Shown here in pieces: positions 15,450 to 64,000 of a DNA stretch of 64,000 nt; the stretch's first letter is position 1; every line of letters starts with the position of its first letter. The position numbers and the translations under genes are program-made. Source of the DNA: an uncultured Chloroflexia bacterium (GTDB lineage: Bacteria; Chloroflexota; Limnocylindria; Limnocylindrales; CSP1-4). Location: the NCBI GenBank assembly GCA_963808895.1, contig CAWEHL010000001.1, positions 515,560 through 579,559 of the forward strand. The letters run 5' to 3'. Under the pieces are notes generated by a model, which saw only the letters and a list, made by a program, of their open reading frames with translations, was not told the origin of the DNA and made no database searches.

Positions 15450-16095
15450 TCAGGAAGCGCTCGGGGATGGAGCCGCGGTCGCGGACGCCGACGCCGACGC
15501 CGATGCGCTCGCCTCCGGGCTGGCGCCCGAGGCGCTCGGGCTCGCACTGACGCTCGGGCTCCCGCTCGGGCTCTCGGTCGGTGTCGGGGTCGGCGTCGGC
15601 AGGGGTCGGAACACGCCGCCCGTCCCGAGGAAGATCGCATTGAGAAGGATCACGATGTACACGGCGACGGCCGCGATCACGAACGCTCGCGACACGTTCT
15701 CGCGGACGTGGACGGCGACCTCTGAAGGCGACGGCGCTCGCGCGGCTTGCTTGGCCGGAGTGCGGCGCCGTGCCGCCGACGAGCGTCGTTCCGCGGCCGT
15801 CGCGGTCGCGGCCGGTGCCGCGTCTCCGGAGATCTCCCGTACCGCCGCCTCGTAGTCATCGATCTCCGCGTCGGCCGGCGTCGACTTCCTCGTCCCCGTC
15901 GATTCGCTCGTCGTCGATCGCGTCGACGCCCCCGTCATCGAGGTCATCGACATCGGTCTCGCGGTCGAGGTCAGCACGCTCGTCGTCGACACCCTCGTCG
16001 TCGATGTCGGCGTCGAGGTCGTCGTCGGGCGCGCGGTCACGGGGCTCGGTCACCGGTGTGTCATCGCTCCTGGAGCTCGATCGCGGGCCGGGCAT
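15450..16095 (-). pseudogene. Acidic N-terminus / single TM / Pro-Thr-Ser-rich tail protein; needs one frame correction near 15877 as assembled
   Basis: The Asp/Glu-rich ORF 15856..16095 runs into ADAEIDDYE..., a TM (FVIAAVAVYIVILLNAIFLG) and the PTPTPTESPSGSPS tail of ORF 15450..16040. The span is 646 nt (1 mod 3). The likely extra base is in GCCGGCC. Confidence 0.45.
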
Positions 16096-19861: not shown

Positions 19862-19898
19862 GAACACGAAAACCGACCTGACTTAAAAGTCGGTCGGT
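19862..19898 (-). terminator. Intrinsic terminator/attenuator hairpin with U-rich tail
   Basis: Minus strand ACCGACCGACUUUUAAGUCAGGUCGGU (10 bp with one bulge) followed by UUUCGUGUU. Confidence 0.6.
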
Positions 19899-19978
19899 TG
19901 CACTAGTCGCTCCGTCCCACCCTAAGTGCCCAATTTCAGGTGGGGCATCGCCGCGTCCGAGCGTCTTGACGGTTCTTC

Positions 19979-30054: not shown

Positions 30055-30085
30055 CTGGCGCGCCGTCGATCGACGATGATGGGCG

Positions 30086-31392
30086 ATGCGGACGATCCTC
30101 CACGTCGATCTGGACGCCTTCTTTGCCGCCGTCGAGCAACGCGACCGCCCCGAGCTGCGGGGCAAGCCGGTCATCGTCGGTGGCGTCCCGCCCGGCCGTG
30201 GTGTCGTCTCGGCGGCGTCCTATGAGGCACGTGCGTTCGGCGTCCATTCGGCGATGTCGGTGACCGAGGCCTATCGGCGTTGCCCGCACGGCGTCTTCCT
30301 GCCGGTCGACGGGCGTCGGTATCAGCAGGCGTCGCGCGACGTCATGGCCATCCTTCGGCGCTTCACGCCACAGGTCGAACCGATCTCGATCGACGAAGCG
30401 TTCCTCGACGTGACGGGTTCGCGGCCCCTGTTCGGCGAAGGACCCGAGATCGCGGCGTCGATCAAGAGTGGCGGTCCGCGCCGAGGTCGGCTTGACGGCG
30501 TCGGTGGGGGTCGCGACCACGAAGCTCGTAGCGAAGATCGCCTCCGACCTGCGCAAGCCCGACGGGCTCGTCGTCGTCGCGCCGGGGGACGAGGCGGCGT
30601 TCCTCGCGCCCTTGCCGATCGGGCGCCTGTGGGGCGTCGGCGAGAAGACGGCGACCGTCCTTGCCGAGTACGGCGTCAAGACCATCGGCGATCTCGCGGA
30701 CCTCTCGCCAGATCTCCTCGTCCGAAGGTTCGGCAAGCACGGCGCGTCGCTCGTCTCGCGTGCCGTCGGGCTGGACGACGACCCCGTCCACGAGGGTGAT
30801 CCAGCGAAGTCCGTCGGCCACGAGACGACGTTCGACGTCGATACGTCCGACCCCGACGTCATCGAACGGACCTTGCTTGCGCTCAGCGATGGCGTCGCCG
30901 GGCGCCTGCGGTCCGCGGGCGTGCGCGCATCCACGATCGCTGTCAAGGTCCGCGATTCCTCGTTCAGGACGGTGACCCGCCAGCGCACCCTTCCCGAGCC
31001 GACCGATCTGACCGAGCCGATCTACCGGGCTGCCTTGGAGCTGGCGCGTCCCCAGGTGCGCGGGATCCGGGTCCGGCTGCTCGGGGTGACCGCCTCGAAT
31101 CTCGGCGAGCGCGAGCAGATGACGATGTTCGCGGAGACCGAGCCACGCACGCCGGAAGGCGATCGAGGCCGCTGATGCGGTCCGTCGGCGCTACGGCTCC
31201 AAGGCCGTGACACGCGGCCGATTGGTCGGAGCGGGCCTTCCCGCGCCGTTCGAGCGTGATCCACGGAACCCGCTCGACCGGCGGGCTCGAGGCGTGCCGA
31301 CCGACGACGTCGATGCGGATCCGGACGCTCCGGACGGGCGTGACACCCTAGCTGACACAGCGCTCGACGACATTCCGCCCGACGACGCTTGA
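30086..31392 (+). pseudogene. dinB: DNA polymerase IV (DinB), two +1 frame disruptions as assembled (~30468 and ~31145)
   Basis: [15 protein letters not shown] and SIDEAFLDV (catalytic), then [19 protein letters not shown] in the next frame and AIEAADAVRRRYG in the third. The span is 1307 nt (2 mod 3). The 3' end is uncertain. Confidence 0.8.
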
Positions 31393-32007: not shown

Positions 32008-32719
32008 ATGTTGCGGGTTGCAACCTACAATCGCGCGGTGCATCCCGACAGCAATGGAGGTCGGTTCCGCGACCTCACGATCGACCAGTTCGCGGCTCGG
32101 CTCGCGTCATCCGATCCTGTCCCCGGTGGGGGGAGCGCCTCCGCAGTAGCCGCTGCGCTCGGAGCCAGCCTTGTGACGATGGTCGCGTCGCTGACCACGG
32201 GTCGTCCGAAGTACGTGGACCACGAGCCGATGCTGGCGTGGGCACTCGAGATCGGTCCCAGGCTGTCGGAGCGCTTCCTGGCCCTCGCCGACGAGGACGC
32301 AGAGGCCTACGCGGGATACGCGGCGGCGCTTGAAACTGTCGCGCGAAACCGAGTCGGAGATCGAGGCGCGCAGACAGGCGATGCGGGCCGCTGCCCGCGC
32401 CGCATCCGAGGCGCCCTTGCGTTGCCTCGAAGCGTGCGTCGACCTGGTCGCGGCTGCGGAAGCCCTTGCCGGCCGCAGCAACCCCAACGCGGCGAGTGAC
32501 GTCGATGTCGCCGCCCTGCTCGGGGAGGCGGCAGCTCGCGGAGCCGCGGCCAATGTGCTGATCAACCTCCCATCGACGGGCGACCCCGAATACGAGGAAG
32601 CGACGACGGTACGTGTCACCGAGCTGCTATCGGCGATCGAGGATCTCGCGTCGCGTGCACACCAGGCGGTCGCCTCAGGGGAGCCGCGCGACCCGGTCGA
32701 GCCGGTCGGACGGGCGTGA
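32008..32719 (+). pseudogene. Formiminotetrahydrofolate cyclodeaminase family protein, one +1 frame disruption near 32328
   Basis: PVPGGGSASAVAAALGASLVTMVASLT in frame 1, then SEAPLRCLEACVDLV...NPNAASDVDVAALL in the next frame. The span is 712 nt (1 mod 3). The start may be 32038. Confidence 0.75.
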
Positions 32720-37573: not shown

Positions 37574-37606
37574 GCATACCTCGGGGTGACGAAAAAGGGG
37601 TCGGCG

Positions 37607-39301: not shown

Positions 39302-39781
39302 TCAGCGGTATTGGACGTCCCGACGCCAGGGCGGGGTCCGGTCGGACCCGGCCGTTCGCATCCCCATCCGGCTCAGCAGCGCGTTGATCTCGTCGCGATA
39401 GCGGGCGCCTTCGGGACGCTCCGCGAGCCACAGCAGATAGCCGGGATCGACCCGCGCGATCTCGCCGACCGACCAGCCCACATGGCGACCGAAGGGCAGG
39501 ACCGTGCCCGATGGATCGCCGGGCGGGTCGCCGGCGGCGCCGGTCCCATCGCGCGGTTTCGCGTCGCGCTGATCGCGCTCATAGGCGGCACGTCGTTCGG
39601 CGGTCTTGAGCGCATCGTATGCGGCGTTGATGCGGATCATCCGGCGACTCGCCGTTTCCCCAGCGACGTCGGGATGATGGCGCCGCGCCAGGCGGCGATG
39701 GGCACGCGCGACCGCCGCATCGTCGGCATCGCGCGAAAGACCCAGGACGACATAGGCGTCGCCCTCGACCTGTTCGAGCAT
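39302..39781 (-). CDS. J-domain protein with C-terminal PFGRHxGW...YLxWL module (DUF3820/ExoX-C-like)
   Basis: DAYVVLGLSRDADDAAVARAHRRLARRHHPD (HPD), then LPFGRHVGWSVGEIARVDPGYLLWLAE. Confidence 0.75.
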   Translation of the reverse strand: MLEQVEGDAYVVLGLSRDADDAAVARAHRRLARRHHPDVAGETASRRMIRINAAYDALKTAERRAAYERDQRDAKPRDGTGAAGDPPGDPSGTVLPFGRHVGWSVGEIARVDPGYLLWLAERPEGARYRDEINALLSRMGMRTAGSDRTPPWRRDVQYR

Positions 39782-39912: not shown

Positions 39913-40395
39913 TCACGATCGGCCGAAGCGGCTCCAGGTCGCGTCAGCAGTGGCGTACGCCCGTCTCCGTGGGACGCCCATGCCGATCAGGATGTCGTCG
40001 ATCTCGTCCCGGTAGGTCTCGCCCTCGGCACGGTCCGCCAGCCACACGAGGTAACCCGGGTCGACACGCGCGATCTCGCCGAGCGACCAACCGATGTGCC
40101 GCCCGAAGTCGAGGACGCTGCCCGAGGGCCGGCCGGGTGGCGGACCGGCGCCGCCCGTCCCGTCACGCGGCGGCGGTGGCTTGCGCGCTGCGTCATATTC
40201 GGCCCGGGCAGGGGCGTTCCGGATCGCCTCGAACGCGGCATTGATGTGCATCATCCGGCGCGTCGCGGACTCGCCCGCGAGGTCCGGGTGATGGCGTCGC
40301 GCGAGCCGTCGGTGAGCGCGGGCGATCGACTCGTCATCCGAGTTCCGATCGACGCCGAGGATCGCGTAAGCGTCGCTGCTGCCGGTGTCGGGCAC
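39913..40395 (-). CDS. J-domain protein, tandem paralog of 39302..39781
   Basis: DAYAILGVDRNSDDESIARAHRRLARRHHPD, then LDFGRHIGWSLGEIARVDPGYLVWLAD. Confidence 0.75.
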   Translation of the reverse strand: MPDTGSSDAYAILGVDRNSDDESIARAHRRLARRHHPDLAGESATRRMMHINAAFEAIRNAPARAEYDAARKPPPPRDGTGGAGPPPGRPSGSVLDFGRHIGWSLGEIARVDPGYLVWLADRAEGETYRDEIDDILIGMGVPRRRAYATADATWSRFGRS

Positions 40396-40515
40396 GCCTA
40401 TGGGTCAGCTCCCCCTCCGCGATGGTGCGGCGCGGCTCGGACCGCACCGGCTTCCTGACCGCACTCTACCGGGCTCTCGCGCGGGTTGCAGGCCGTCCGG
40501 GCACCGTAGACTCGG

Positions 40516-41315
40516 GTGGTCATGGTCTTCGATCCAGAGCGCGTCACGATCGTCGACGTCACCGACGAAGTCGACGTTCGGTCTGATCCCGCCGTGCGCC
40601 GACCCCTCGTTCGACCATCGATCGTGCGACTACTGGGAGGACGCCGACCGGGGGTCGAAGGCGATCCGCCTCGACGTGGCTCGAGCCGCGACGGCCCGAT
40701 CCCGAAAAAGCCGTCCGACCGACCGACGCCCGCCAACCCGTTCCTCGCCGACCTCGAGGAGCGCAGCGCCAACCCGTTCGCTCGGCCGGGCACGGGCGCG
40801 GGAGCATTCAACCCGTTCCTCGATGACGACGACGCCGCCGACGACAACCCGTTCGCGCCCCGGCCGCCGGCCCGACCGACCGTCGGCGACACGGCCTATC
40901 CGAAGCTCCGGCTGCTCGGCCGCGGGCTGGCGGTCGCGGGGAGCTATGCCAAGGTCCTGCTCGTCGACGACGTGCCGGCCGCCTACTGCCAGTTCGGCCC
41001 GCTGACGGCGTACCCGCGGGCACAGCGGACGCGCGACCTGTATCCGGCGCTGCCCGATTCGCCGCTGCCGGCCGTCATCACCTGCATCGCGTCGACGGCC
41101 GACGCGCGCGATGCGCGGCCTGGCGCGGACGCTCGTCGAGGACGTCTGCGCCGACCTCGGACGGCGCGGGTTCGCGGCCGTCGAGACCTATCCGGAGATC
41201 GGCGCGAGGCCCGATGCCACCAGCGCCGCGACGCCCGGCGTTCTGGGAGTCGGTCGGGTTCGTCGTCGCCGCGCCGGACGAGCGGTTCCCGGTCATGCGC
41301 CGCGAGCTGGCGTGA
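40516..41315 (+). pseudogene. GNAT-type acetyltransferase with internal NPF-repeat acidic linker; about 5 frame disruptions (+1) as assembled
   Basis: Pieces in rotating frames: FDPERVTIVDV, PPCADPSFDHRSCDYWEDADRGSKA, WLEP, ANPFLADLEERSANPF..AFNPFLDDDDAADDNPF, YCQFGPLTAYPRA, GLARTLVEDVCADLGRRGFAAVETYPE, AFWESVGFVVAAPDERFPVMRREL. The span is 800 nt (2 mod 3). TAGACT at 40507. Confidence 0.65.
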
Positions 41316-41970
41316 GCCGGCGGATCCGCGGCGCGACGGTCGGCGGCGGTCGCACTGGTCGCCCTGGTCGTCGTCGCCGGTTGCATCCCGCCGCGGCCCT
41401 CGCCGAGCCCGCACGCCGCGACGCCCCCATCGACGGCGCCGCCACCGAGCCCGACGGCGAGCGCCGGCGCCGCGTCCTCCGGGACGGGTGCGCCGTCCGC
41501 CGGCGTCGTCGGTGGATCCGTCGCTGCTCGGCCGTCCTGCCCGACGCGGTCGGCGGCGTGCCGCTCCAACCTGACCAGGCGACGGCCGCTGAGATCGCGC
41601 GGCGAGCCGTCGATCGCACCGTTCGTGTCGGCTCGCTCGCGCTCGCGGCTGCCTTCGGACCGCCGGCAGTCGACACGCGGCCGGTGACTACGTCGTCGTC
41701 ACCGTCGCGCGGCTGAAGCCCGGCCTCTTCGGCGACCTCTTCTTCCGGGGTTGGCGCGACACCTTCGACGCGGCCGTCTGCGAGCAGGCCGGCGGCGTCG
41801 CAGGGCGCGCCGAGGCCACGATCGGCGGCCGGCAGACATTCATCGGGACGTGCGCCGGCGGGGTCCACACCTACCACGTCCACCTGCCCCGACCGGGACC
41901 TCATCGTCTCGATGCAGGGTGGCGGCGCGAGGCGGTTCGGAGAGCGCGTCGTCGAGGGTCTGAACGAGTA
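41312..41970 (+). pseudogene. Lipoprotein of unknown function; at least 4 frame disruptions as assembled
   Basis: LVALVVVAGC lipobox, then LPDAVGGVPLQPDQATAAEIA, GDYVVVTVARLKPGLFGDLFFRGWRDTFDAAVCEQAGG and RDLIVSMQGGGARRFGERVVEGLNE in successive frames. Confidence 0.5.
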
Positions 41971-41980
41971 GCCTTCCGGC

Positions 41981-43656
<1,676 letters not shown>

Positions 43657-43657
43657 C

Positions 43658-44665
43658 GTGCTGGTCGAATCGGTCCCGAACGTCTCCGAGGGCCGGCGGC
43701 TCGATGTCGTCGACCGGCTCGCGGACGCGATCACCGCGGTCCCGGGCGTGTTCCTGCTCGACCGGACCAGCGATGCGAGCCACAACCGGTCGGTGTTCAC
43801 GATGGCCGGCGAGCACGACGCCGTCAGCGACGCGCTCGAACGGCTCGTCGCCGCGGCGATCCACGAGATCGACATGGACGCGCATGAAGGGCGAGCACCC
43901 GCGCATCGGCGCGGTCGATGTCATCCCGTTCATCCCGCTCGGCTCCACCTCGATCGACGAGGTCATCGACCTCGCGCGCGCCTTCGGTGAGCGGCATGGC
44001 GACCCGCTTCGGCCTGCCGGTGTACCTCTACGCGCGAGCCGCCCTGCGGCCCGACCGCGAGCGCCTCGCCGACGTCCGCCGGGGGCAGTACGAGGGCCTC
44101 AAGGTCGAGATCGAGCAGAACGGCCGCGAGCCGGACTTCGGACCGCATCGGATGCATCCGTCCGCAGGCGCCGTAGCGGTCGGTGCTCGCCCGTTCCTGA
44201 TCGCCTACAACATCAACCTCGATGCCGATGACGTCGACCTCGCGAAGCGGATCGCCCGCCGCGTCCGCGAGTCGGGCGGCGGGCTGCCGAAGCTGCAGGC
44301 GAACGGGTTCGAGGTCCGTGAGCCCGAGCGTGGTCATCCGCTTGCGGGCACAGGTCTCGATGAACCTGCTCGACTTCGCGGTCACACCGCTCTGGCTGGT
44401 CTGGGACGCCGTGCGCGATCTCGCCGCCGAGGATGGCGTCCTTCTCGCCGAGTCCGAGCTGATCGGGCTGGCGCCGCAGGCATCCTTCGAGGCGATCGCC
44501 GACCACACGGGTGCGACCGGTGGGTCGCTCGACGCTCGGCTCGCGGCCGCAGCCGACTACATCCGCCTGCGCGACTACTCACCGATGCAGATCCTCGAAC
44601 GTCGGCTCGAGGCGGCCAGGCACAGCGCCGATCCGGCCTCCGCAGACGCGCGGCCCGAGACATGA
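43658..44665 (+). pseudogene. Glutamate formimidoyltransferase (FTCD N-terminal type); 3 frame disruptions (+1) as assembled
   Basis: VESVPNVSEGRR, HPRIGAVDVIPFIP, GLPVYLYA, RPFLIAYNINL and LLAESELIGL in successive frames. The span is 1008 nt. Confidence 0.8.
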
Positions 44666-46027
44666 CCGGCGGCCCGTTCCGCGTCATCGAAGGCGGGCGG
44701 ACCGGCGAACCCACGCCCGGGCTCCTCATCGTCGGCGCCAGCGAGATCGTCACGCTCGCCGGCGGCGTCCGGCGCGGGCCCCGCCAGGGCGGACCTGGCC
44801 CGGCTGGTCGCGGACGAACCAGGTAGCGCCTCGTCACCGGTCGTGGCGGTGTGGGAGGGAAGGATCGCGGGCGTCGGTGAGCGGGCCGCGGTCGAGGCCG
44901 AGCTCGAGGCCGACGGGCTCCCCCTGGCACGCTTCGCTAGGATCGATGCGGCCGGTGGCTCGGTCACGCCGGGTCTGATCGACCCGCACACCCACCTGCT
45001 GTTCGCAGGCTCGCGCGAGGACGAGCTCGTCCTCCGCCAGGAGGGCGCCTCGTACCTGGACATCCTTGCGGCCGGCGGCGGGATCCTCTCGACGGTCGCG
45101 GCGACCCGTGCGGCATCCGAGGCGGACCTGTTGACCCATGGCCGGCGCTGGCTCGACGAGATGCTGACCCACGGCGTCACGACGATCGAGGCGAAGTCCG
45201 GCTACGGGCTCGACCTCGAGACCGAGCTCCGGCTCGTCGAGGTCGCCTACCGGCTCGGCCGCGAAGGGCCGATCGACGTCGTGCCGACGTGGCTCGGCGC
45301 GCACGCGGTCCCGGCGGAGTTCCGGTCGCGACCGGACAGCGTCGAGGCGTACGTCCGCCACCTGCTCGATGAGCAGCTGCCCGGGATCGCCGCCCACGGC
45401 CGTGCCCGATTCGCCGACGTCTTCTGCGAGGAGGGCGTGTTCAGCGCCGACCAGTCGAGGCGGATCCTCGAGGCGGCCCGGTCGTATGGCCTGCTTCCCC
45501 GGCTCCACGCCGATGAGCTGGCCCCTTCCGGCGGAGCGGAGCTCGCCGCCGAGATCGGGGCATCGTCAGCCGACCACCTCGCCACGCCGTCGCTCGACGG
45601 GATCGCCGCGATGGGCGCCGCGGCCGACGCCGACGATCCGGTCGTCGCGACGCTCCTGCCCGTGACGACGTGGTTCCTCATGAAGGACCACCACGCCCCG
45701 GCGCGCGCGTTCATCCAGGCGGGCGTGCCGGTCGCGATCGGCACGGACTTCAATCCCGGGACGTCGCCGACACCGAACCTCACGCTGGCGATGTCGTTCG
45801 CGGTCATCAACCTGCGGATGACGCCGGACGAGGCCCTCGCCGCCGTGACGATCAACGCCGCTCGTGCGCTCGATCTCGAGGACGAGATCGGTTCGCTCGA
45901 GCCTGGCAAGGCCGCGGATCTCGTGATCTGGCGCGTCCCGACGACCGCGCGGATCCCGTATCACCCGGGTGCGGACCTCGTTCGCACCGTCATCAAGCGC
46001 GGGCGTGTGGTGCTGGATCGGCCCTGA
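44662..46027 (+). pseudogene. hutI: Imidazolonepropionase; one +1 frame disruption near 44800
   Basis: ATGA overlap with the upstream gene. LLIVGASEIVTLAGG then GLIDPHTHLLFAGSR, GVTTIEAKSGYGL, LHADEL, IGTDFNPGTSP. The span is 1366 nt (1 mod 3). Confidence 0.85.
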
Positions 46028-46980: not shown

Positions 46981-48279
46981 GTGTACGATCGGGCCATGGA
47001 TCGACCCCTGATGCGACCGGTCGCGACCGCCGCGATCGTCGCCCTTCTCGCGGCCGCATGCGGCTCGCCCGCCCCGTCGGCCAGTCCCTCCGCGGCGGCC
47101 TCGCCGTCACCGTCCTCGAGCGCCCCGGTCGCCTCTCCGAGCGCGTCGGGCTCTGGGGGCGACGAGGCCGTCTACGCCGCGATCAACGAGCAGGTCCGGG
47201 CGATCCGCGGCCTGCAGGAGAAGACGCCCGTCGAGCCGACCATCGTGTCGCCCGACGAGATGACCCAGGTCCTCAAGGACTCGTTCAGCGAGGACTACCC
47301 GCCCGACCAGGTCGCCGCCGACGAGCAGCTGTACCACGGCCTCGGGCTGCTTCCGAAGGACGACAAGCTGGCCGACCTCTACATCGACCTCCTGTCGAGC
47401 CAGGTGGCCGGCCTGTACGACCCGATCAAGAAGAAGCTGTACGTCGTCTCCAAGCAGGGCGGCATCGGCGCGGTGGAGAAGGTCTACTACTCGCACGAGT
47501 ACGACCATGTCCTGCAGGACCAGAACTTCGACCTCCAGAAGATGCAGGACGGTCTCGATGACAAGACCGACGAGGCCCTCGCCCGTCAGTCGCTGGTGGA
47601 GGGCGACGCCTACCTCACGATGTCGTACTGGTTGCAGCAGAACCTGACACCCGAGGAGATCGGCGAGGTCATCCAGGCTTCGAACGACCCGACCGCGCAG
47701 CAGGCGCTCAACCGGATCCCGGCCATCGTCCAAGCGCAGATCACCTTCTCCGCCATCCAGGGCACCCAATTCGTCACGTCCATGCAGCTGGGCGGTGGCT
47801 GGGAAGCCGTCAACAGCGGGTTCGCCGATCCGCCCACCTCGACCGAGCAGATCCTTCACCCGGAGAAGTACACCGCGCATGAAGCGCCGGTCGCCGTGGA
47901 GCTCCCGGCGGACCTCGCGAAGCGGATGGGGTCGGGCTGGTCGACCGTGATGAGTGACACGATGGGCGAGCACCAGACGGCGATATGGCTCGGCTCCGGG
48001 ACCGTTGCCGCGGCGACGGACGCATCAGCCGGCTGGGGCGGCGACCGGATCACCTACCTGAGCGGCCCGAACGGGGGCTGGGCGATCGCATGGCACACGG
48101 TCTGGGACACCAAGGAGGACGCAGCCGAATTCGACGTGACCGCGAAGACGGCCGTCGAAAAGGCGGGTGGTCCCGGCCAGGTGCTCCCCGGCGCGGGCGG
48201 GACGACCCGGTGGGTCGTCATCGGCAGCGACGACGCCGCGCTCCAGAAGGTGGCGAACGTCCTCGGGCTGGCGGGCTGA
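46981..48279 (+). CDS. Lipoprotein with HExxH zinc-peptidase-like motif
   Basis: Lipobox ALLAAC-GS, Ser/Pro/Ala linker, YYSHEYDHVLQDQNF (HExxH), downstream LVEGDAYL. The start may be ATG 46996 or 47011. Confidence 0.7.
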   Translation: MYDRAMDRPLMRPVATAAIVALLAAACGSPAPSASPSAAASPSPSSSAPVASPSASGSGGDEAVYAAINEQVRAIRGLQEKTPVEPTIVSPDEMTQVLKDSFSEDYPPDQVAADEQLYHGLGLLPKDDKLADLYIDLLSSQVAGLYDPIKKKLYVVSKQGGIGAVEKVYYSHEYDHVLQDQNFDLQKMQDGLDDKTDEALARQSLVEGDAYLTMSYWLQQNLTPEEIGEVIQASNDPTAQQALNRIPAIVQAQITFSAIQGTQFVTSMQLGGGWEAVNSGFADPPTSTEQILHPEKYTAHEAPVAVELPADLAKRMGSGWSTVMSDTMGEHQTAIWLGSGTVAAATDASAGWGGDRITYLSGPNGGWAIAWHTVWDTKEDAAEFDVTAKTAVEKAGGPGQVLPGAGGTTRWVVIGSDDAALQKVANVLGLAG

Positions 48280-50021: not shown

Positions 50022-50315
50022 CGCGGCATCGTACCGGCGGAGGCAGGGGGACGTCGGTACCGGTGTGGGTCCTGGGCCGTCGGTCCGGGGGTCCTGGGTG
50101 ACCCTTCGTTGCTGGGCGTCAACGAAATCATGGCCGCCTGGGCGGTGGTGGTGGGACTGGTGTAGTCGCCGGTCGCCAGAGGTACTAGACCGGCCAGTAC
50201 CCGCGTGTGAATATCCGGCCCTCGTTCGGTGCACGGACACCCCGACAGGGGACAAGCGGCCGAAACGGGGGGACCACTCAACCAGAGGCTTCGGCCTCAG
50301 CTCGGGGACCGTCAC

Positions 50316-51125
50316 ATGTCGAGAACTCATTCCGGCGCACGATCGCGCCTCGCCCGCCGCCTGTCGTGGCTGGGCGTCGTCTCCATGATCGCGGTGGCGT
50401 TGCTCGCCCCGTCGACCTCGCCCGCGCTCGCGGCTGCGCCTGGCAACAACGCCACGGTGAAGATCGAGGATTCGGTCAACCCGAAGCCCGAGCCCGCGAA
50501 CGATCCGCACGTCTGCCAGTTCGACATCAAGTTCTACTTCGCGGACCCCGGGCAGGCCGGTGACTGGCACATCCAGTCGTGGCCTCCGACGGGCGACAAG
50601 ACGACCGTCCTCGAGGGGACGTACGACACCAACAGCCAGGGCTTCGATCGTCAGCCGACGAGCGGCTACTACTCGCTGCCGGACGGCCACTACAAGCTGT
50701 TCTGGAAGGGCGACGAGGAGAAGCTCTGGAAGCACAAGGTCTTCTGGGTCGAGTGCCAGCCGGCGCCGACCGAGACGCCCAAGCCCACCGAGACGGTGAA
50801 GCCGACCGAGACGCCCACGCCGACCGAGACGCCCAAGCCGACGAAGACGCCGTGCCCGCCCTCGGAGACGCCCAAGCCGACCGAAAAGCCCAAGCCGACC
50901 GAGACGACGCGGGTCGATCCCACGCCGAAGCCCACCGGTGACGTCGGGCCCTCGAGCGGAAAGACCAACCCGCCGCACGCGACCCTGCCCCCGACGGACA
51001 CGCTCGACGGTGCCTCCTCGGCGCCGGCGAGCGACAGCTGGCGGATCATCCTCCTCGCGATGGCCGGTCTGCTGACCGCCGCCCTGATGCTGACTCCGGC
51101 CCGCGCGGCCCGGAAGCAGGACTAG
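50316..51125 (+). CDS. Secreted protein: signal peptide, ~110-aa domain, Pro-Thr-Glu-Lys linker, C-terminal TLPxT..DxWR-TM-basic tail
   Basis: MSRTHSGARSRLARRLSWLGVVSMIAVALLAP..ALA-AAPG, HVCQFDIKFYF, KHKVFWVEC, PTETPKPTE repeats, TLPPTDTLDG..SDSWRIILLAMAGLLTAALMLTPARAARKQD. Confidence 0.8.
   Translation: MSRTHSGARSRLARRLSWLGVVSMIAVALLAPSTSPALAAAPGNNATVKIEDSVNPKPEPANDPHVCQFDIKFYFADPGQAGDWHIQSWPPTGDKTTVLEGTYDTNSQGFDRQPTSGYYSLPDGHYKLFWKGDEEKLWKHKVFWVECQPAPTETPKPTETVKPTETPTPTETPKPTKTPCPPSETPKPTEKPKPTETTRVDPTPKPTGDVGPSSGKTNPPHATLPPTDTLDGASSAPASDSWRIILLAMAGLLTAALMLTPARAARKQD
50764..50908 (+). repeat. Coding tandem repeats (about 18-nt units, PTETPK-type linker)
   Basis: ccgaccgagacgcccaag-like units are reiterated about 7 times. 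Confidence 0.8.
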
Positions 51126-51354: not shown

Positions 51355-51547
51355 GTCTGCCAGGTGCACGAAATCGGTGCGTGACGGCACCGCAAGTGTC
51401 AACGGTTTGACGCTCGCGGTGACCCGAAAGTACTAGACGTGGACCCGGGACCATGGGACCATGCGCGGCCTCGGCTCCACGAGTGGGGGCTCTAGGCCGA
51501 GCCGTCATGCCCGAGGCGCACGCCTCACCTCTTGGGGACCGTATCGA

Positions 51548-52459
51548 ATGACTGCCCAAAAGCGTTCTCGAGCGAGCCGACGACTCGGCTGGCTCGTCGT
51601 CGTCGGTCTCGCGTTGTCCGCGCTCCTCTGGCCGGCGACCGCGGTCGCAGCGACCGGCGCGATCTGGACGTCGCTCTCGAATGGCGCGACGGTGAACGCG
51701 AACATCTATGACGCGAAATCAGACGTCTACCTGAACGGCGGACCGCAGAACTGCGGCAACGGTGGCGGCCTGCCCGACGGCCTGTACTACTTCCAGGTGA
51801 CGGATCCGAGCGGTGCGACGCTCCTCTCGAGCGATGCGCTCAAGTTCCGGATGGTCAGCGTGAGCGGCGGCGTCATCGCCGGTACCGGCGGCACGGGCAA
51901 CCACAACGAGGGCACGGGTGGCTGCAACGGTGGTACGCCGGTCCAGCTGATGCCGTACGACGACACGCCGAACAACGGTGGCGAGTACAGCGTGGACATG
52001 GCGCCCCAGGCGGACGTGGAGGACTGCGCCGGCTTCAGTGCGAATTCGACGTCATTCAACTTCCTTGACTGCACCACTTCGAAGAACGACAACTTCAAGG
52101 TGAAGCTCGCGGCGACGCCGACCCCGACGCCGGCACCGACCGCGACACCCACCCCGGCACCGACCGCGACTCCGACCCCGGCACCGACCGCGACTCCGAC
52201 CCCCGCACCGACCGGCAGCGTCGAGCCGACGCAGACCGTGAATCCGACCGCGACGCCGGCACCGACCGGGAGCGTCGAGGCCGCGACGGCGACGCCCGCT
52301 CGGACCTTGCCCTCGACGAGCACGATCGACGGGTCGGGCAACGGCCCGATGAACGATGGTTGGCGCGTCGTCCTGCTCGCGCTGGCGGGCGTCCTCGCGA
52401 CCGCACTGCTGCTGACGCCGGCGACGGCCGTGATCCGAAAGGACGATCGGCGCCGCTGA
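51548..52459 (+). CDS. Secreted protein, paralogous in architecture to 50316..51125
   Basis: MTAQKRSRASRRLGWLVVVGLALSALLWP..AVA-ATG, GLPDGLYYFQVTDPSGATLL, TPTPAPTA x4 linker, TLPSTSTIDG..NDGWRVVLLALAGVLATALLLTPATAVIRKDDRRR. Confidence 0.8.
   Translation: MTAQKRSRASRRLGWLVVVGLALSALLWPATAVAATGAIWTSLSNGATVNANIYDAKSDVYLNGGPQNCGNGGGLPDGLYYFQVTDPSGATLLSSDALKFRMVSVSGGVIAGTGGTGNHNEGTGGCNGGTPVQLMPYDDTPNNGGEYSVDMAPQADVEDCAGFSANSTSFNFLDCTTSKNDNFKVKLAATPTPTPAPTATPTPAPTATPTPAPTATPTPAPTGSVEPTQTVNPTATPAPTGSVEAATATPARTLPSTSTIDGSGNGPMNDGWRVVLLALAGVLATALLLTPATAVIRKDDRRR
52111..52214 (+). repeat. Coding tandem repeats (24-nt units, TPTPAPTA linker)
   Basis: About four near-identical 24-nt units. Confidence 0.8.
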
Positions 52460-53375: not shown

Positions 53376-54348
53376 TCAGTCCTGTCGGTCGGGTGGACCG
53401 CCAGGGGACTGGTCGTTCGGCTTCGGCGTCTTCGTCGGCTTGGGAGTCGGGGCCGGGTGCTCGGTCGCCGCCGGCTTGCCCGTGGCCTCGGGCCGCTCTG
53501 GAGCCGCCTTGGTCGGCTTCGGCGTGGCCTGCTGACCGTTCGCCCCGGCGCCAGCTGCGCCGCCATCGCCAGCCTGCGAGCCGCCGCCGTTGCCGCCCTG
53601 GTCGCTACCTGTCGGGCCGTGGCCAGCGGCGCCACCGGCCGGGCTCGGCCGATCGACCGCACCCACGGTGTCGATCGCCCCCGCACTCCGTGCGATCGCG
53701 CGCGCGACAGCGCCGCTGATGGCTGCCGCCGCGCGTGGCGGCACGTGACCGACCAGCGCTTCGAGCACCTCGACGTTGCGTCCGAGGCCGGTCTCGAGCG
53801 CTGCGGCGGCCACGGGATCGCCAGCGGCGAGAACGTCTTTGGACGCCTCGATCATGATCCGCTCGTACGCCCCGAGCGCAGCGGCCGCCGCAGCGTCATC
53901 GCCGTTTCGAGCCGCGGCCTCGGCCTCCCGGAGCCGGTCCGCCAGGCGATCCAGTTCGGCGACCGCACGGGCGGAGGGATCGGACGGCAACGACGCGTCC
54001 TCGATCCACAGTCGCGCCTCGTACAAGGCTCCACCAGGACCCGATGACGCCGCCGCCGCACCGACCATCGCGCCGACGAGGATGGCCGCCGCGATGAGTG
54101 CGACAGCGGCTCGCCGGCCGCCACGACGCCCTCGTTCGATCGACGCGCGGGAGGCGATGTCCGGAACGATGGTCAGCGCCGCGTCCGCTCGCGCCAGATC
54201 CGCGCGTCGGTGGGCATGCGCGAGAACGCGTGCCCGCATCCGTGACGTCGCCGTGAGCTCGGGCGTCAGGCGAACGTCGGCGTACGCCTCGAGGCGTCGC
54301 CGAAGACGTACATCCCCCGCCGTCGAGATCGATCATGTCGTTGCTCAT
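53376..54348 (-). pseudogene. Anti-sigma-factor-like membrane protein (DUF5667-like) with Pro-Thr-Lys tail; one extra base in a G5 run near 54314
   Basis: MSNDMIDLDGG then DVRLRRRLEAYADVRLTPE...RMRARVLAHA in the next frame. TM AAVALIAAAILVGAMVGAAAA. The span is 973 nt (1 mod 3). ATGA overlap with the sigma gene. Confidence 0.6.
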
Positions 54349-54987
54349 CGACCGATCCGTCCATCGTTCGCGGCGTCGTCGCCGCGTTCGGTGTCGGGCT
54401 CGTCGATCCGGAGCTGCCGCCGCAAGCGCGGCGATCGCCCGGAACTGGAGCCCGCGGATCGTCCCTTCCTGCTTGCCCATCACCTCGGCGGCTTCGCGGG
54501 CCGACAGGCCGGCGAAGAAGCGCAGCGCGATGGCGTCTCGTTGTTCGTCCGTCAGCGCCGCGAGCGCGGCCGCGACCTCGTCGAGCTCCTGGCGCGCGAC
54601 CGTGACCTCGTCCGGGCCTGCATCGGCGCCGGGCTGGTCGACTGGCCGACGTCGAGGTCGACGTGGTCGTGCCGCGTCCGGACGTGATCGATGACCGCGT
54701 TCCTGGCCAGCCGGAAGAGCCAGCCCCCGAACGGGATGCCCCGCGCCTCGTAGCGCGGCAGCGCTTCCAGGGCCTTGACGAAGACGAGCTGCGTCAGGTC
54801 CTCCGCGTCCGACGGGCGGTGGACGCGGCTGGCGATGTAGCGATAGACCGGCAGGTGGTAGTGATCGAACAGGAGTCCGAACGCCCAGGCGTCCCCCGAC
54901 TCGGGCCTCCTGCACCAGCCGCTCGATCGCGGCGTCGTCGAGGGTCACAACGAACGTCCCGCCGACCGCGTTAGGCGTGGTGGCCAT
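54345..54987 (-). pseudogene. ECF (group 4) sigma-70 factor; at least 3 frame disruptions as assembled
   Basis: Region 2 DAWAFGLLFDHYHLPVYRYIASRV...DLTQLVFVKALEAL...GWLFRLARNAVIDH lies in one frame. Region 4 LTDEQRDAIALRFFAGLSAREAAEVMGKQEGTIRGLQFRAI lies in another. Confidence 0.7.
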
Positions 54988-55813
54988 CGGCACCACCACC
55001 GAGTCGTCGCCTCGCCGGAAGGTGAGTCGGCTCGAAACCGGCGGCTGCCGCGACCCGGTAGCCGTCGTCGAGCGCCCACGCGAAGGTGTCGGCGCGGTGC
55101 GCATCGGAGCCGATCGTGATCCGCTCGCCGCCGAGCTCCCGGAAGCGCGCCACGATACGGGCGGGCGGGTAGATCTCCCTGGCCTCCTGGCGGAGCCCGC
55201 TCGTGTTGATCTCGAGCGCCGTGCCGGTCTCGACCAGGGCGTGGAGCAGCGGCTCGTACAGCTCCGGCGCCGCGGCGAGGTCGGCGGCGGTCACGTGCGG
55301 CGCCAGGTAGCGCTTGACGACGTCGAGATGGCCGATCGCATCGAACAGGCCGGCTGCGGATCGCCCGTCCGACCTCTGCGAAGTACGGCTCCACGACCTC
55401 GCTGAGCGACCGTCCGGCGACCCAGTCGCGACGTTCGACGCCTCGTACGGCGAGCCGCGATAGACGTGGACCGACCCGATCGTGAAGTCGTAGGCGTGAT
55501 CGCGCAGGTGGTCGCGGATATCGTCGGCCCACCGACGATCCCAGGTGATCTCGACACCGAACCGGATGGCCAGGCCGCGATCGGCCCAGCGCTCGGCCGC
55601 TTCCCGGACGATGCGCTCGCGATCGGCGAACGACACGTACCGATACGCCGGCGCGCCGGGCTCGAAGTCGACGTGGTCGGTGATCGCGATCTCGGGGATG
55701 CCGCGCTCGACGGCCTGCGACGCGAAGACGTCGATCGGCACCTCGCTGTCGGGCGACAGGTCGGTGTGCAGATGCGCATCGAGCGGCAGGTCGCGCGCCT
55801 GGCGATCGCTCAT
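54971..55813 (-). pseudogene. PHP-domain histidinol-phosphatase family protein; internal and C-terminal frame disruptions
   Basis: LDAHLHTDLSPDS, EIAITDHVDF, GSVHV. DWVAGRSLSEVVEPYFAEV lies in another frame, then FDAIGHLDVVKRY and ITIGSDAH. The 3' end is unresolved. Confidence 0.65.
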
Positions 55814-60699: not shown

Positions 60700-61810
60700 C
60701 CGCGATGGGCAGCGCCGTCCCGAGGCCGCGTGACGCACACGGGAGTCGAACGCCGGTGGAGCCGAGGACCCAGCGACCGCGCATCGCCGATGTCGCGCGC
60801 GAGGCCGGCGTCAGCAAGACGGCCGTGTCCTTCGCGTTCAACGCCCCTGACCGGCTCGCGCCCGAGACCACGGAGCGGATCCGCGGGGTCGCGCAGCGCT
60901 TGGGCTACACGCCGCATCCGGTGGCTCGGATGCTCACCCAGCGACGGACGGGCACCATCGGCGTGTTGACGCCGCAGGCCCTCAGCGTCGTCTTCGGGAA
61001 CCCGTTCTTCGGCGCTTTCAGTGCCGGGGTCGCGCGCGTCGCCGAGGAGCACGGCTACGGGCTCCATTTCATCTCACCGTTCCAGGGCAGCCTCGTCGGG
61101 GCGATGACCAGGGCGACGGTCGACGGCGTGGTGGCGGTCGGTCTGAGCGAGGATCACCCCGAGATCGAGGACATCCGCCGAGCCGGACTTCCGCTCGTGC
61201 TCGTCGACTCGCAGGCGCTCCCGGAGCACGGATCGGTCGAAGTCGACGATGTGGGCGGTGCCCGCGAGGCGGCCACCTATCTCGCGCAGCTGGGCCATCG
61301 CGAGGTGCTCGTGCTCGGCGTCGAGCCACCCTCGCCCGGCGGGGCGGATCCGGACGGCGTCACCGCCCGGCGACTGCACGGCTATCGCGAAGGGTTCGGC
61401 GCCGTAGGGCGTCGATCTAGCGGCAAGCACGATGATCGCCGGCCCCGCGACGATCGACGGCGGCGCGGCGGCGATCCGCGAAGCGTGGGAGGACGGGGCG
61501 GCGGCCGACCGCGATCCTGGCCATGTCCGACGCCATCGCCATCGGCGCGATGCAGGCGCTGCGGCAGCTCGGTCTCCACGTTCCCGATGACGTGAGCGTC
61601 GTGGGTTTCGACGACATCGATCTCGCGTCGCACGTCGATCCGCCGCTCACGACCGTGCATCAGCCGATCGACCGCAAGGGCGAGGAGGCAGTCCGTGCGC
61701 TCCTCGCTGTCATCGAAGGAGCAGGGGCGGTACGCGTCGAGCATCGCCGGCTCGACACGCGGTTGGTCGTCCGCGGATCCACGGGACCGGCCCCGCACCG
61801 AGGTCGCCGC

Positions 61811-61814
<4 letters not shown>
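60696..61814 (+). pseudogene. LacI-family transcriptional regulator; about 3 frame disruptions (+1) as assembled
   Basis: HTH RIADVAREAGVSKTAVSFAFN, VDGVVAVG, then [20 protein letters not shown], then [35 protein letters not shown] in successive frames. Confidence 0.75.
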
Positions 61815-63374
<1,560 letters not shown>

Positions 63375-63382
<8 letters not shown>

Positions 63383-63992
63383 TCTCCCCTTCGAACTGGG
63401 GACCGGGCTCGACGAACAACTGGCCCGGGTCCTCGATGTCGAGGGCAAGATCCCGCGGGCGATCGAGGCGCTGGGTCCGGTGGAGGGGCGAGACGTCGTC
63501 GTCGTCGATGCATCCGCCGGACTGCGCGCTCGGCAACTGGAATCATCTCGGCGCCCGCGTCACCGTCGTCGACTCGAGCGGACCGACGCCGTTCGCCGCG
63601 CCCGATGCGTCGGCGGACGTCGTCGTCGGCCTCTGGTCGGCGTTCCGCGGCGCCGTCGCCGACGAGATCGCGCAGGCGTCGCGGGTCCTCCGCCCGGGCG
63701 GACGGCTGCTCGCGGTCCACGACTACGGCCGCGACGACGTCGCCGAGCTGCGTGGACCGCAGCCCGAGTACGGGCCGTGGACGCGCCGGGACGGACCGTT
63801 CCTGGGTGATGGCTTCAAGATCCGCGTCCTTCACTGCTGGTGGACGTTCGCATCGATCGGACGAGGCCCGGACGTTCCTCGAGGCGGCGTTCGGTGATGC
63901 CGGCCGGGCGGTCGCGGAGCGGCTGACCCGGCCGCGGCTGTCCTACAACGTCGCGGTCTACCATCGGACCCTCGGACGAGGAGCCCGCATGA
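63375..63992 (+). pseudogene. SAM-dependent methyltransferase-like protein; at least 2 frame disruptions
   Basis: GRDVVVVDASAG, ADVVVGLWSAF, VLRPGGRLLAVHDYGRDD and RLSYNVAVYHR in successive frames. ATGA overlap with a further gene starting at 63989. Confidence 0.45.
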
Positions 63993-64000
63993 CCGACCGC

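Follow-up and report, generated by a model that had tools for sequence, protein, structure and literature searches.

Mycobacterium leprae is an example of a pseudogene-rich genome under reductive evolution. Real bacterial indel spectra are varied in length, and deletions predominate in them. Programmed frameshifting, as in prfB, takes place at one conserved site per gene, and the site is present in orthologues. The collapsing of haplotypes is known, from the polishing of diploid long-read assemblies, to leave consensus errors at sites that are heterozygous or vary between strains.

In the Microflora Danica pipeline, Flye (--meta --nano-hq) was followed by one round of Medaka, and for MAGs of lower coverage its authors describe errors associated with Nanopore (PMC12313526). 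In the literature on Nanopore assemblies, the emphasis is on low coverage and on errors of homopolymer length (PMC12313526; R10.4 evaluation, PMC9262707).

The window, that is, the whole stretch of 64,000 nucleotides that we analysed, was assembled from a population of Chloroflexota (Ca. Limnocylindrales); the closest GTDB relatives listed for it are mostly Microflora Danica long-read MAGs. Like genomes of the M. leprae type, the window has many consecutive genes with broken frames. Unlike them, it is free of in-frame stops, its substitutions are mostly synonymous, its spectrum is one of single-base insertions, and, except at two sites that each recur in one long-read contig, the closest strains do not share these insertions. 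Programmed +1 frameshifting resembles the window in its direction, but the window has many sites per gene and these are not conserved. As in consensus errors from collapsed haplotypes, the errors of the window sit in divergent stretches of a second haplotype, and three sites unite two alleles; as a general explanation of the insertions, however, haplotype collapse is without statistical support. The errors of Nanopore-only metagenome assemblies (Flye and Medaka) are alike in being patchy, private, and ORF-breaking within an otherwise intact protein, and among the contigs compared here they are present in every long-read-style contig and hardly at all in short-read contigs. The window differs from these assemblies in that the inserted base is mostly unlike its neighbours, a complementary base splits runs of G or C, and the bias towards insertions is extreme.

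Judged from these sequence comparisons, the frame breaks are very probably consensus errors of a long-read metagenome assembly, and not mutations or gene loss. The platform was most likely Nanopore, with an assembly of the Flye/Medaka type, given the behaviour of the errors and the relatives.

Frame breaks in the histidine utilisation region

Between 40.5 and 44.8 kb, five consecutive genes contain 21-25 insertion events: 5 in a GNAT-like gene, 7-11 in a putative lipoprotein gene, 5 in hutU, 3 in ftcD, and 1 in hutI. The preliminary description of this DNA had estimated about 18 corrections; the breaks exist, but the count was too low, while its numbers for the four genes other than the lipoprotein gene were reproduced by frameshift-aware alignment. 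The GC3 frame plot steps repeatedly across this region, and in frameshift-aware protein-to-DNA alignments with intact orthologues as reference, all steps in these genes were +1, as had been proposed. The spans of hutU (1676 = 1671+5), ftcD (1008 = 1005+3), and hutI (1366 = 1365+1) equal the intact length plus the number of shifts, in agreement with the congruence noted earlier.

For comparison, we recovered contigs of the same species (96-99% nucleotide identity) from other samples via exact-protein look-ups. Each inserted base between 40.5 and 44.8 kb, with the exception of 44341, is missing in all 3-8 independent contigs available at the site; these always include a short-read (MEGAHIT-style) contig (L089, in parts L090-L094), the assignment of contigs to the long-read or short-read class being inferred from their naming and length. 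A scan of metagenome contigs found other species only, at no more than 89% amino acid identity, and these were left out of the site-level calls. Exact-protein look-ups with three ORFs as they stand in the window (the 394-aa hutI fragment, the 408-aa aminotransferase, and the 427-aa ORF at 46996) gave no match.

The GNAT-like gene (40522..41315, plus strand) has five private insertions, at 40570, 40674, 40721, 41113, and 41236. They are missing in 5-8 independent same-species contigs, 3-6 of which are short-read, and the corrected gene is a 262-aa ORF with zero stops. The putative lipoprotein gene (41316..41971, plus strand) contains seven clear insertion events comprising eight bases, at 41509, 41529, 41603, 41627-41628 (2 nt), 41668, 41673, and 41891/41894. 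Two further events are ambiguous: a triple insertion (41411, 41418, and 41422; net +3) in a linker rich in Pro and Ser, and a compensated pair with +1 at 41800 and -1 at 41808. Relative to three independent contigs (L087, L088, and L089) the gene has a net gain of 11 nt, and its corrected frame is open through to the stop. The labels GNAT and lipoprotein come from the preliminary description; no Pfam support was found for either gene.

In hutU (urocanate hydratase; 41981..43656, plus strand), the five private insertions are at about 42195, 42474, 42641, 43015, and 43083. The corrected protein of 556 aa is 96% identical to those of L001 and L002 and to database urocanases. The formimidoyltransferase gene ftcD (FTCD_N and FTCD domains; 43658..44665, plus strand) has insertions at 43892, 43996, and 44341, and hutI (imidazolonepropionase; 44662..46027, plus strand) has one, at 44790. 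At this last site the population alleles are GGGGG and GGGCG, and the window reads GGGCGG; the corrected protein has 454 aa, as in L087 and L001. The same-species contigs hold these genes unbroken: the GNAT-like gene at 262 aa, the lipoprotein gene at 211 aa, hutU at 556 aa (L087, L088, and L089), and ftcD at 334 aa (L087 and L089).

Removal of the private bases from the window yields full-length, conserved ORFs (hutU 556 aa, ftcD 334, hutI 454, GNAT-like 262, dinB 434, amylase 502). The preliminary description had reported one in-frame stop; we found none in the corrected frame of any of the corrected genes.

Other affected loci and contigs of the same species

Shifts had also been described in dinB, a cyclodeaminase, an acidic protein, a LacI gene, and an amylase gene, and all were recovered (2, 1, 1, 2, and at least 14, respectively). 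The two private insertions in dinB (IMS family; 30086..31392, plus strand) are at 30471 and 31148, with one more insertion just upstream, at 30080/30083; after correction, the protein shares 99.3% identity with that of the unbroken gene (434 aa) in the short-read contig L083. The cyclodeaminase gene (FTCD_C; 32008..32719, plus strand) has a single insertion at 32329, common only to the long-read contig ERZ25039536:contig_32811, and is unbroken at 236 aa in L081 and in the short-read L083. The gene for the 200-aa acidic protein (15453..16053, minus strand) has one extra base at 15878; here the single comparator is a long-read contig (L176), and the assignment of the base to the window rests on the broken ORF of the window.

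Two further clusters, proposed at 53.4-55.6 kb and at 61.4-64 kb, were located. The first (53379..55813, minus strand) affects genes for an anti-sigma factor (one insertion, 54322), an ECF sigma factor (four; 54423, 54639, 54651, and 54899), and a PHP-domain protein with 2-3 shifts (insertions at 54960, 55031, and 55353, plus a private deletion at 55425). Four short-read contigs (L189-L192) have all three genes unbroken (323, 199, and 288 aa). The second (60756..63989, plus strand) comprises a LacI-family regulator (61409 and 61492), an alpha-amylase (at least 14 insertions, between 61938 and 63246), and the ORF that follows it (63545, of 3 nt, 63857, and 63975). All three are intact in L186 (351, 502, and 204 aa); the comparators across this cluster are long-read contigs, except for the short-read L191, which reaches 61474.

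The description of about 30 kb as clean agrees with the comparison: from 3.6 to 15.8 kb the window shows 0-2 gaps relative to short-read contigs, and from 22 to 30 kb it has zero private indels. From 15.8 to 21.9 kb the single comparator is the error-prone long-read contig L176, and indels there were attributed to neither sequence.

The five other long-read-style contigs contain 144 private indels in 128 kb (about 1.1 per kb), clustered and in different places, with insertions and deletions at 95:50. The 22 short-read contigs of the species have 19 in 102 kb (0.19 per kb), so that the rate per kb in long-read-style contigs is about six times that in short-read contigs. Broken genes in the long-read contigs include ArgRS (three pieces, L087), ftcD (two pieces, L088), and DegT (two halves, L176); such fragments from public long-read contigs already sit in protein collections.

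The extra bases are private to this assembly and missing in other assemblies of the same species, and they are therefore almost certainly consensus errors. An artefact of long-read type, without pseudogenisation, had been suggested at the outset, and the intact genes in contigs free of the insertions favour it.

The private haplotype and selection

Between 40500 and 44200 the haplotype of the window is private and divergent: private substitutions number 34-43 per kb here and 0-3 per kb elsewhere. Similar stretches occur at about 54.3-55.5 kb and at 61.4-64 kb, and in all of these the haplotype is about 4-5% different from other strains of the species. The insertions co-localise with the private-haplotype stretches (Spearman rho = 0.61, p = 7e-11); their density is 6.3 per kb in private-haplotype bins versus 0.35 per kb elsewhere. 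Among the recovered contigs there was no second copy of this haplotype. In a protein search with the private hutU haplotype the best match was 96%, in a search that returns representatives of 90%-identity clusters and cannot resolve haplotypes.

In the GNAT-like gene, hutU, ftcD, and hutI, 94 of the private substitutions are synonymous and 20 are non-synonymous, i.e., 82% synonymous versus a neutral expectation of 26% (p = 1e-35). The genes with frame breaks are under purifying selection and are not decaying.

Under the reading of the frame breaks as consensus errors, the divergent stretches may rest on few reads of a minor haplotype, or two haplotypes may have been mixed in the consensus. At three or more places, the two variants of a G/C or T/G polymorphism would have been written next to one another. 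An independent long-read contig of a different haplotype (L088) also has the insertion at 44341, and L087 and L089, both of them haplotype-matched, lack it; this recurrence points to an influence of sequence context on some of the errors. The context of the errors differs from that of the textbook homopolymer-length error, and the exact technical mechanism can be proposed only tentatively.

Indel spectrum and origin of the extra bases

Over the whole window, we counted 62 private single-base insertions, one of 2 nt, and one of 3 nt, versus 2-3 deletions, a bias that exceeds that of the other long-read contigs. The private deletions are at 55425 (in the PHP-domain gene, relative to 8/8 contigs), 41808, and an intergenic C-run at 40416. 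Damage had been described as insertion-only, which is nearly correct, these deletions being the exceptions. Sixteen of the 62 insertion points lie within a run of three or more G or C (expected 7.9%; p = 1.8e-5). No common sequence motif emerged at the insertion sites. Enrichment was seen only for GGGC/GGCG across the inserted base (uncorrected p about 1e-4) and, to a mild degree, for TCGA/GTCGAC contexts; with these enrichments and no common motif, an explanation through methylation motifs is unsupported.

It is possible, though we tend to doubt it, that collapsed reads of two haplotypes, with both SNP alleles kept side by side in the consensus, lie behind most of the insertions. At three sites the window is directly the union of both population alleles (30080/30083, 44790, and 62937/62940), and such a process would account for the +1 direction, for an inserted base unlike its neighbour, for the G/C bias, and for the co-localisation with a divergent haplotype. 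If the inserted bases and the private substitutions were drawn from one pool, about 80% of the events should be compatible with a synonymous polymorphism; the general test found 24 of 45 (53%) versus 47% by chance (p = 0.23). In the best-curated genes 8 of 13 events were compatible with a synonymous allele (hand count, after correction of the frame at 44341). Insertion points occur in every codon phase (12, 14, and 19). Moreover, the contig L082 has insertion clusters of its own (24.1-24.3 and 26.9-27.0 kb) where it is not divergent. The data fit a fifth to a half of the events at most, and we retain the mechanism as a partial explanation only.

We consider it very improbable that a small subset of the insertions is real, or that a localised mutational process acted in recombined segments. 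Sharing by descent with the closest strains is seen only at 32329, common to a contig of the same haplotype, and this extra C in the cyclodeaminase gene could be real; the C at 44341 in ftcD, whose context is identical, is a less likely candidate. If so, the formimino-transfer branch of histidine catabolism would recently have been lost in one strain of a soil Limnocylindrales species. On a more radical reading, a localised process would have inserted the complementary base into G/C runs of recombined segments.

Slightly less probable still is a burst of real and very recent +1 frameshifts that inactivated the hut pathway, a sigma/anti-sigma pair, a starch-utilisation unit, and other genes. 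The inserted bases are present in the sequence as given, the private haplotype is without an independent copy, and 32329 occurs in another assembly of the same haplotype. However, if hutU had acquired its five indels by neutral decay, many non-synonymous changes and stops would be expected in it; synonymous changes make up 65 of its 76 private substitutions, and the corrected frames contain no stops. The spectrum also argues against real mutations, since all but two of the insertions are of a single base and they outnumber deletions 62 to 2-3, and a C inside a run of G is not a product of slippage. Other long-read contigs of the species show similar clustered private indels, and its short-read contigs hardly any.

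The preliminary description had placed the extra base in short homopolymers, where classical homopolymer-length errors (454, Ion Torrent, older Nanopore), in which a run is called one base too long, would put it. A few events do lengthen a short run (41236 (CCC), 30471 (GG), 54960, and 62728). In contrast, only 10 of the 62 inserted bases match a neighbour, where random insertion gives 51-54% (p = 1.5e-9), and the other 52 differ from both neighbours; in runs of three or more G or C the complementary base was inserted in 16 of 16 (e.g., GGGG to GGGCG). Replication slippage would not give this pattern either. Homopolymer-length errors are thus a very improbable source, and since the errors of the window are not of the homopolymer-length kind, the flow chemistry that had been suggested is not indicated. 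If the frame were restored in vivo, by programmed ribosomal frameshifting or by transcriptional slippage, the single +1 direction throughout would fit. The probability of this is negligible, however: one gene alone would need five such sites and the window over 60, the sites have no slippery motif in common, and none of them is conserved in the same-species contigs or in the orthologous loci compared (more than 60).

As consensus errors of the assembly, the frame breaks bear on data hygiene and are not a biological feature. Taken at face value, the window would imply that an uncultured Chloroflexota of soil has recently lost histidine utilisation, an ECF sigma/anti-sigma pair, dinB, and a starch-utilisation unit, none of which is supported. 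Public long-read contigs of the species also have genes split by this kind of error. Such stretches could be flagged without reads by a signature in three parts: all frame steps are +1; the inserted base does not match its neighbours, and runs of G or C are divided by the complementary base; and the sites cluster in private-haplotype stretches.

Frame breaks between 40.5 and 44.8 kb

The G+C content of the window is about 70%, and because third codon positions are about 90-95% G+C, GC3 closely follows the reading frame. A GC3 frame plot stepped repeatedly across all three phases between 40.5 and 44.8 kb. We wrote a frameshift-aware protein-to-DNA aligner for the purpose and used intact orthologues of related genomes as references. 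The alignments required five +1 corrections in hutU, three in ftcD, one in hutI, five in the GNAT-like gene (262 aa), and at least seven in the lipoprotein gene; these five genes showed neither -1 steps nor in-frame stops. Individual frameshift sites were backed by up to 67 reference loci. The multiple frame breaks that the preliminary description reported here are real, and were even undercounted; the gene spans it gave (1676, 1008, and 1366 nt) agree with the shift counts of hutU, ftcD, and hutI.

The corrected proteins, with the additional bases deleted, were 87-96% identical to their orthologues, with the lipoprotein lower at 78-82%. Among the gene names proposed earlier, formimidoyltransferase and hutI were confirmed by Pfam, whereas GNAT and lipoprotein were left without Pfam support: neither the corrected 262-aa protein (40522-41315) nor the lipoprotein (41316-41971) had a match at E ≤ 0.01. 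The arrangement of these two genes adjoining hutU is kept across the order. Upstream, two J-domain (DnaJ) paralogues of 159 and 160 aa lie side by side on the minus strand (39302-39781 and 39913-40395); their mutual DNA identity is about 70-74%, and the pair is kept in all relatives.

Comparison with contigs of the same species

A hutI scan of GTDB genomes places the organism in the Candidatus Limnocylindrales group of the Chloroflexota, and the nearest species representatives had about 85% DNA identity. Of the relatives listed, most are long-read MAGs from Microflora Danica, whose Mb-scale contigs carry names of the form contig_N. That catalogue was made from Nanopore reads using Flye --meta --nano-hq and one Medaka round, and its authors describe Nanopore-associated errors in MAGs of lower coverage (PMC12313526). 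We infer a long-read origin for the window's sequence.

Exact-protein look-up with the DnaB, J-domain, PIG-L, FAA hydrolase, and threonine dehydrogenase proteins, all intact, retrieved contigs of the same species that cover 3.6-64 kb at 96-99% identity to the window. Six are independent and long-read-style (ENA ERZ25039464, ERZ25039536, ERZ25039579 (two), ERZ25039584, and ERZ25039585), and 22 are short-read-style (k141_, JGI, Logan). Each frameshift between 40.5 and 44.8 kb corresponds to one additional base in the window, and, 44341 excepted, these bases occur in none of the independent contigs spanning the site; L089, a short-read contig, is among these comparators, as are L090-L094 over parts of the region. 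The GNAT-like (262 aa), lipoprotein (211 aa), hutU (556 aa), and ftcD (334 aa) genes are intact in the comparators, which supports the earlier reading of a local assembly artefact over pseudogenisation. Elsewhere, dinB and the cyclodeaminase gene are unbroken in one short-read contig (L083), the PHP, ECF sigma, and anti-sigma genes in four short-read contigs, and LacI and the amylase in another same-species contig (L186).

In the whole window, 62 single-base insertions, one 2-nt insertion, one 3-nt insertion, and two deletions (41808 and 55425) are private, i.e., present in the window only; removal of the private bases gives full-length ORFs with zero stops. Large stretches had been described as free of breaks, and 3.6-15.8 and 22-30 kb are indeed clean against short-read contigs.

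Some length differences are plausibly natural polymorphisms: at a C-run in the spacer between the J-domain and GNAT-like genes (40416), the window and one other contig (L095) have one base fewer than eight other contigs, and an A-run at 37594 shows a 3-nt difference. Two secreted or anchored proteins on the plus strand (50229-51125 and 51461-52459) carry Pro/Thr-rich repeats (TPKPTETPKPT...; ATPTPAPT...); indels at about 52181-52207 are probably real, because repeat length there differs between strains.

Private haplotype stretches and the inserted bases

Private substitutions number 34-43 per kb at 40.5-44.2 kb and 0-3 elsewhere, with smaller private-haplotype stretches at 54.3-55.5 and 61.4-64 kb. 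These stretches (40500-44200, 54300-55500, and 61400-64000) differ by about 4-5%, mostly synonymously, from all other contigs of the species, whereas their flanks differ by 0-1% from the nearest contig; they are either a recombination mosaic or part of a strain-chimeric contig. Insertions are uneven, and their density tracks that of private substitutions (500-bp bins, rho = 0.61, p = 7e-11), at 6.3 per kb in private-haplotype bins versus 0.35 per kb outside. In these stretches the contig may follow a minor divergent strain, or mix its reads with those of the common strain, and the consensus would be of poor quality there.

At three sites two alleles of a polymorphism are present in the population, and the window carries one next to the other: 30080/30083 (GATGA[T/G]GGCG, written as GATGATGGGCG), 44790 (GGGGG or GGGCG, written as GGGCGG), and 62937/62940 (CTGAG[C/G]GGCGGG, written as CTGAGCGGGCGGG). 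Such joint writing of alleles would neatly account for the +1-only steps; as a general mechanism, however, it is not supported, since only 24 of 45 events fit a synonymous second allele (47% by chance) and insertion points are scattered over all codon phases. No single motif accounting for the insertion sites emerged from a motif search.

Mutation or consensus error

Compared to all same-species contigs, the GNAT-like, hutU, ftcD, and hutI genes carry 114 private substitutions, 94 of them synonymous (65 of 76 in hutU), against a neutral expectation of 26% (p = 1e-35). The private alleles of these four genes are shaped by purifying selection. Drift spanning five frameshifts would not leave such a synonymous bias, which argues that the frame breaks are not mutations.

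The indel spectrum is also unnatural, being nearly all single-base insertions, and in 52 of 62 cases the inserted base matches neither of its neighbours (about half expected by chance, p = 1.5e-9). All 16 insertions within G or C runs of at least three bases introduced the complementary base (e.g., GGGG to GGGCG), which rules out slippage as their source. The homopolymer association proposed earlier therefore fails.

The other long-read-style contigs have 144 private indels in 128 kb (insertions to deletions 95:50), clustered at other positions, and the short-read contigs 19 in 102 kb. The window's rate, about 1 per kb, is at the level of the long-read contigs, and this distribution counts against mutation. 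At 19-22 kb the GC content is lower (about 60%), and numerous indels, in both directions, separate the window from the long-read contig L176; this stretch contains a cyclic-di-GMP-II riboswitch aptamer (19884-19967, minus strand; Rfam, 64 bits versus a gathering score of 53.5).

At 44341 and 32329 the window shares with ERZ25039536:contig_32811 (L088 and L082) an identical extra C in the context CG[C]TTG. At 44341 this long-read contig has another local haplotype, while the haplotype-matched L087 and L089 are without the insertion; this points to a site-specific consensus error that recurs depending on context, and not to inheritance. The insertion at 32329, in the cyclodeaminase gene, is shared with one contig of identical haplotype; we lean towards an artefact here because the context matches that of 44341.

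True pseudogenisation fails three tests that define it, namely relaxed selection, a natural indel spectrum, and lesions shared by descent. The sites occur in no orthologue or same-species contig, which excludes programmed frameshifting.

Public long-read contigs of the species (L087/L184/L187, L082/L088, L176, and L185) have gene-breaking indel clusters of their own: ArgRS is split into 275+105+377 aa (L087) and ftcD into 101+252 aa (L088), DegT is truncated to 192 aa (L176), and LacI and the amylase are mis-joined (L185). These fragments are already called proteins in public collections.

The nearest known match is the indel error that remains in Nanopore-only metagenome assemblies, although the window's insertions are unusual in not being homopolymer-length errors, and the precise technical origin is resolved only in part. 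That the frame breaks are a consensus artefact, a property of the assembly and not of the organism, is well supported.
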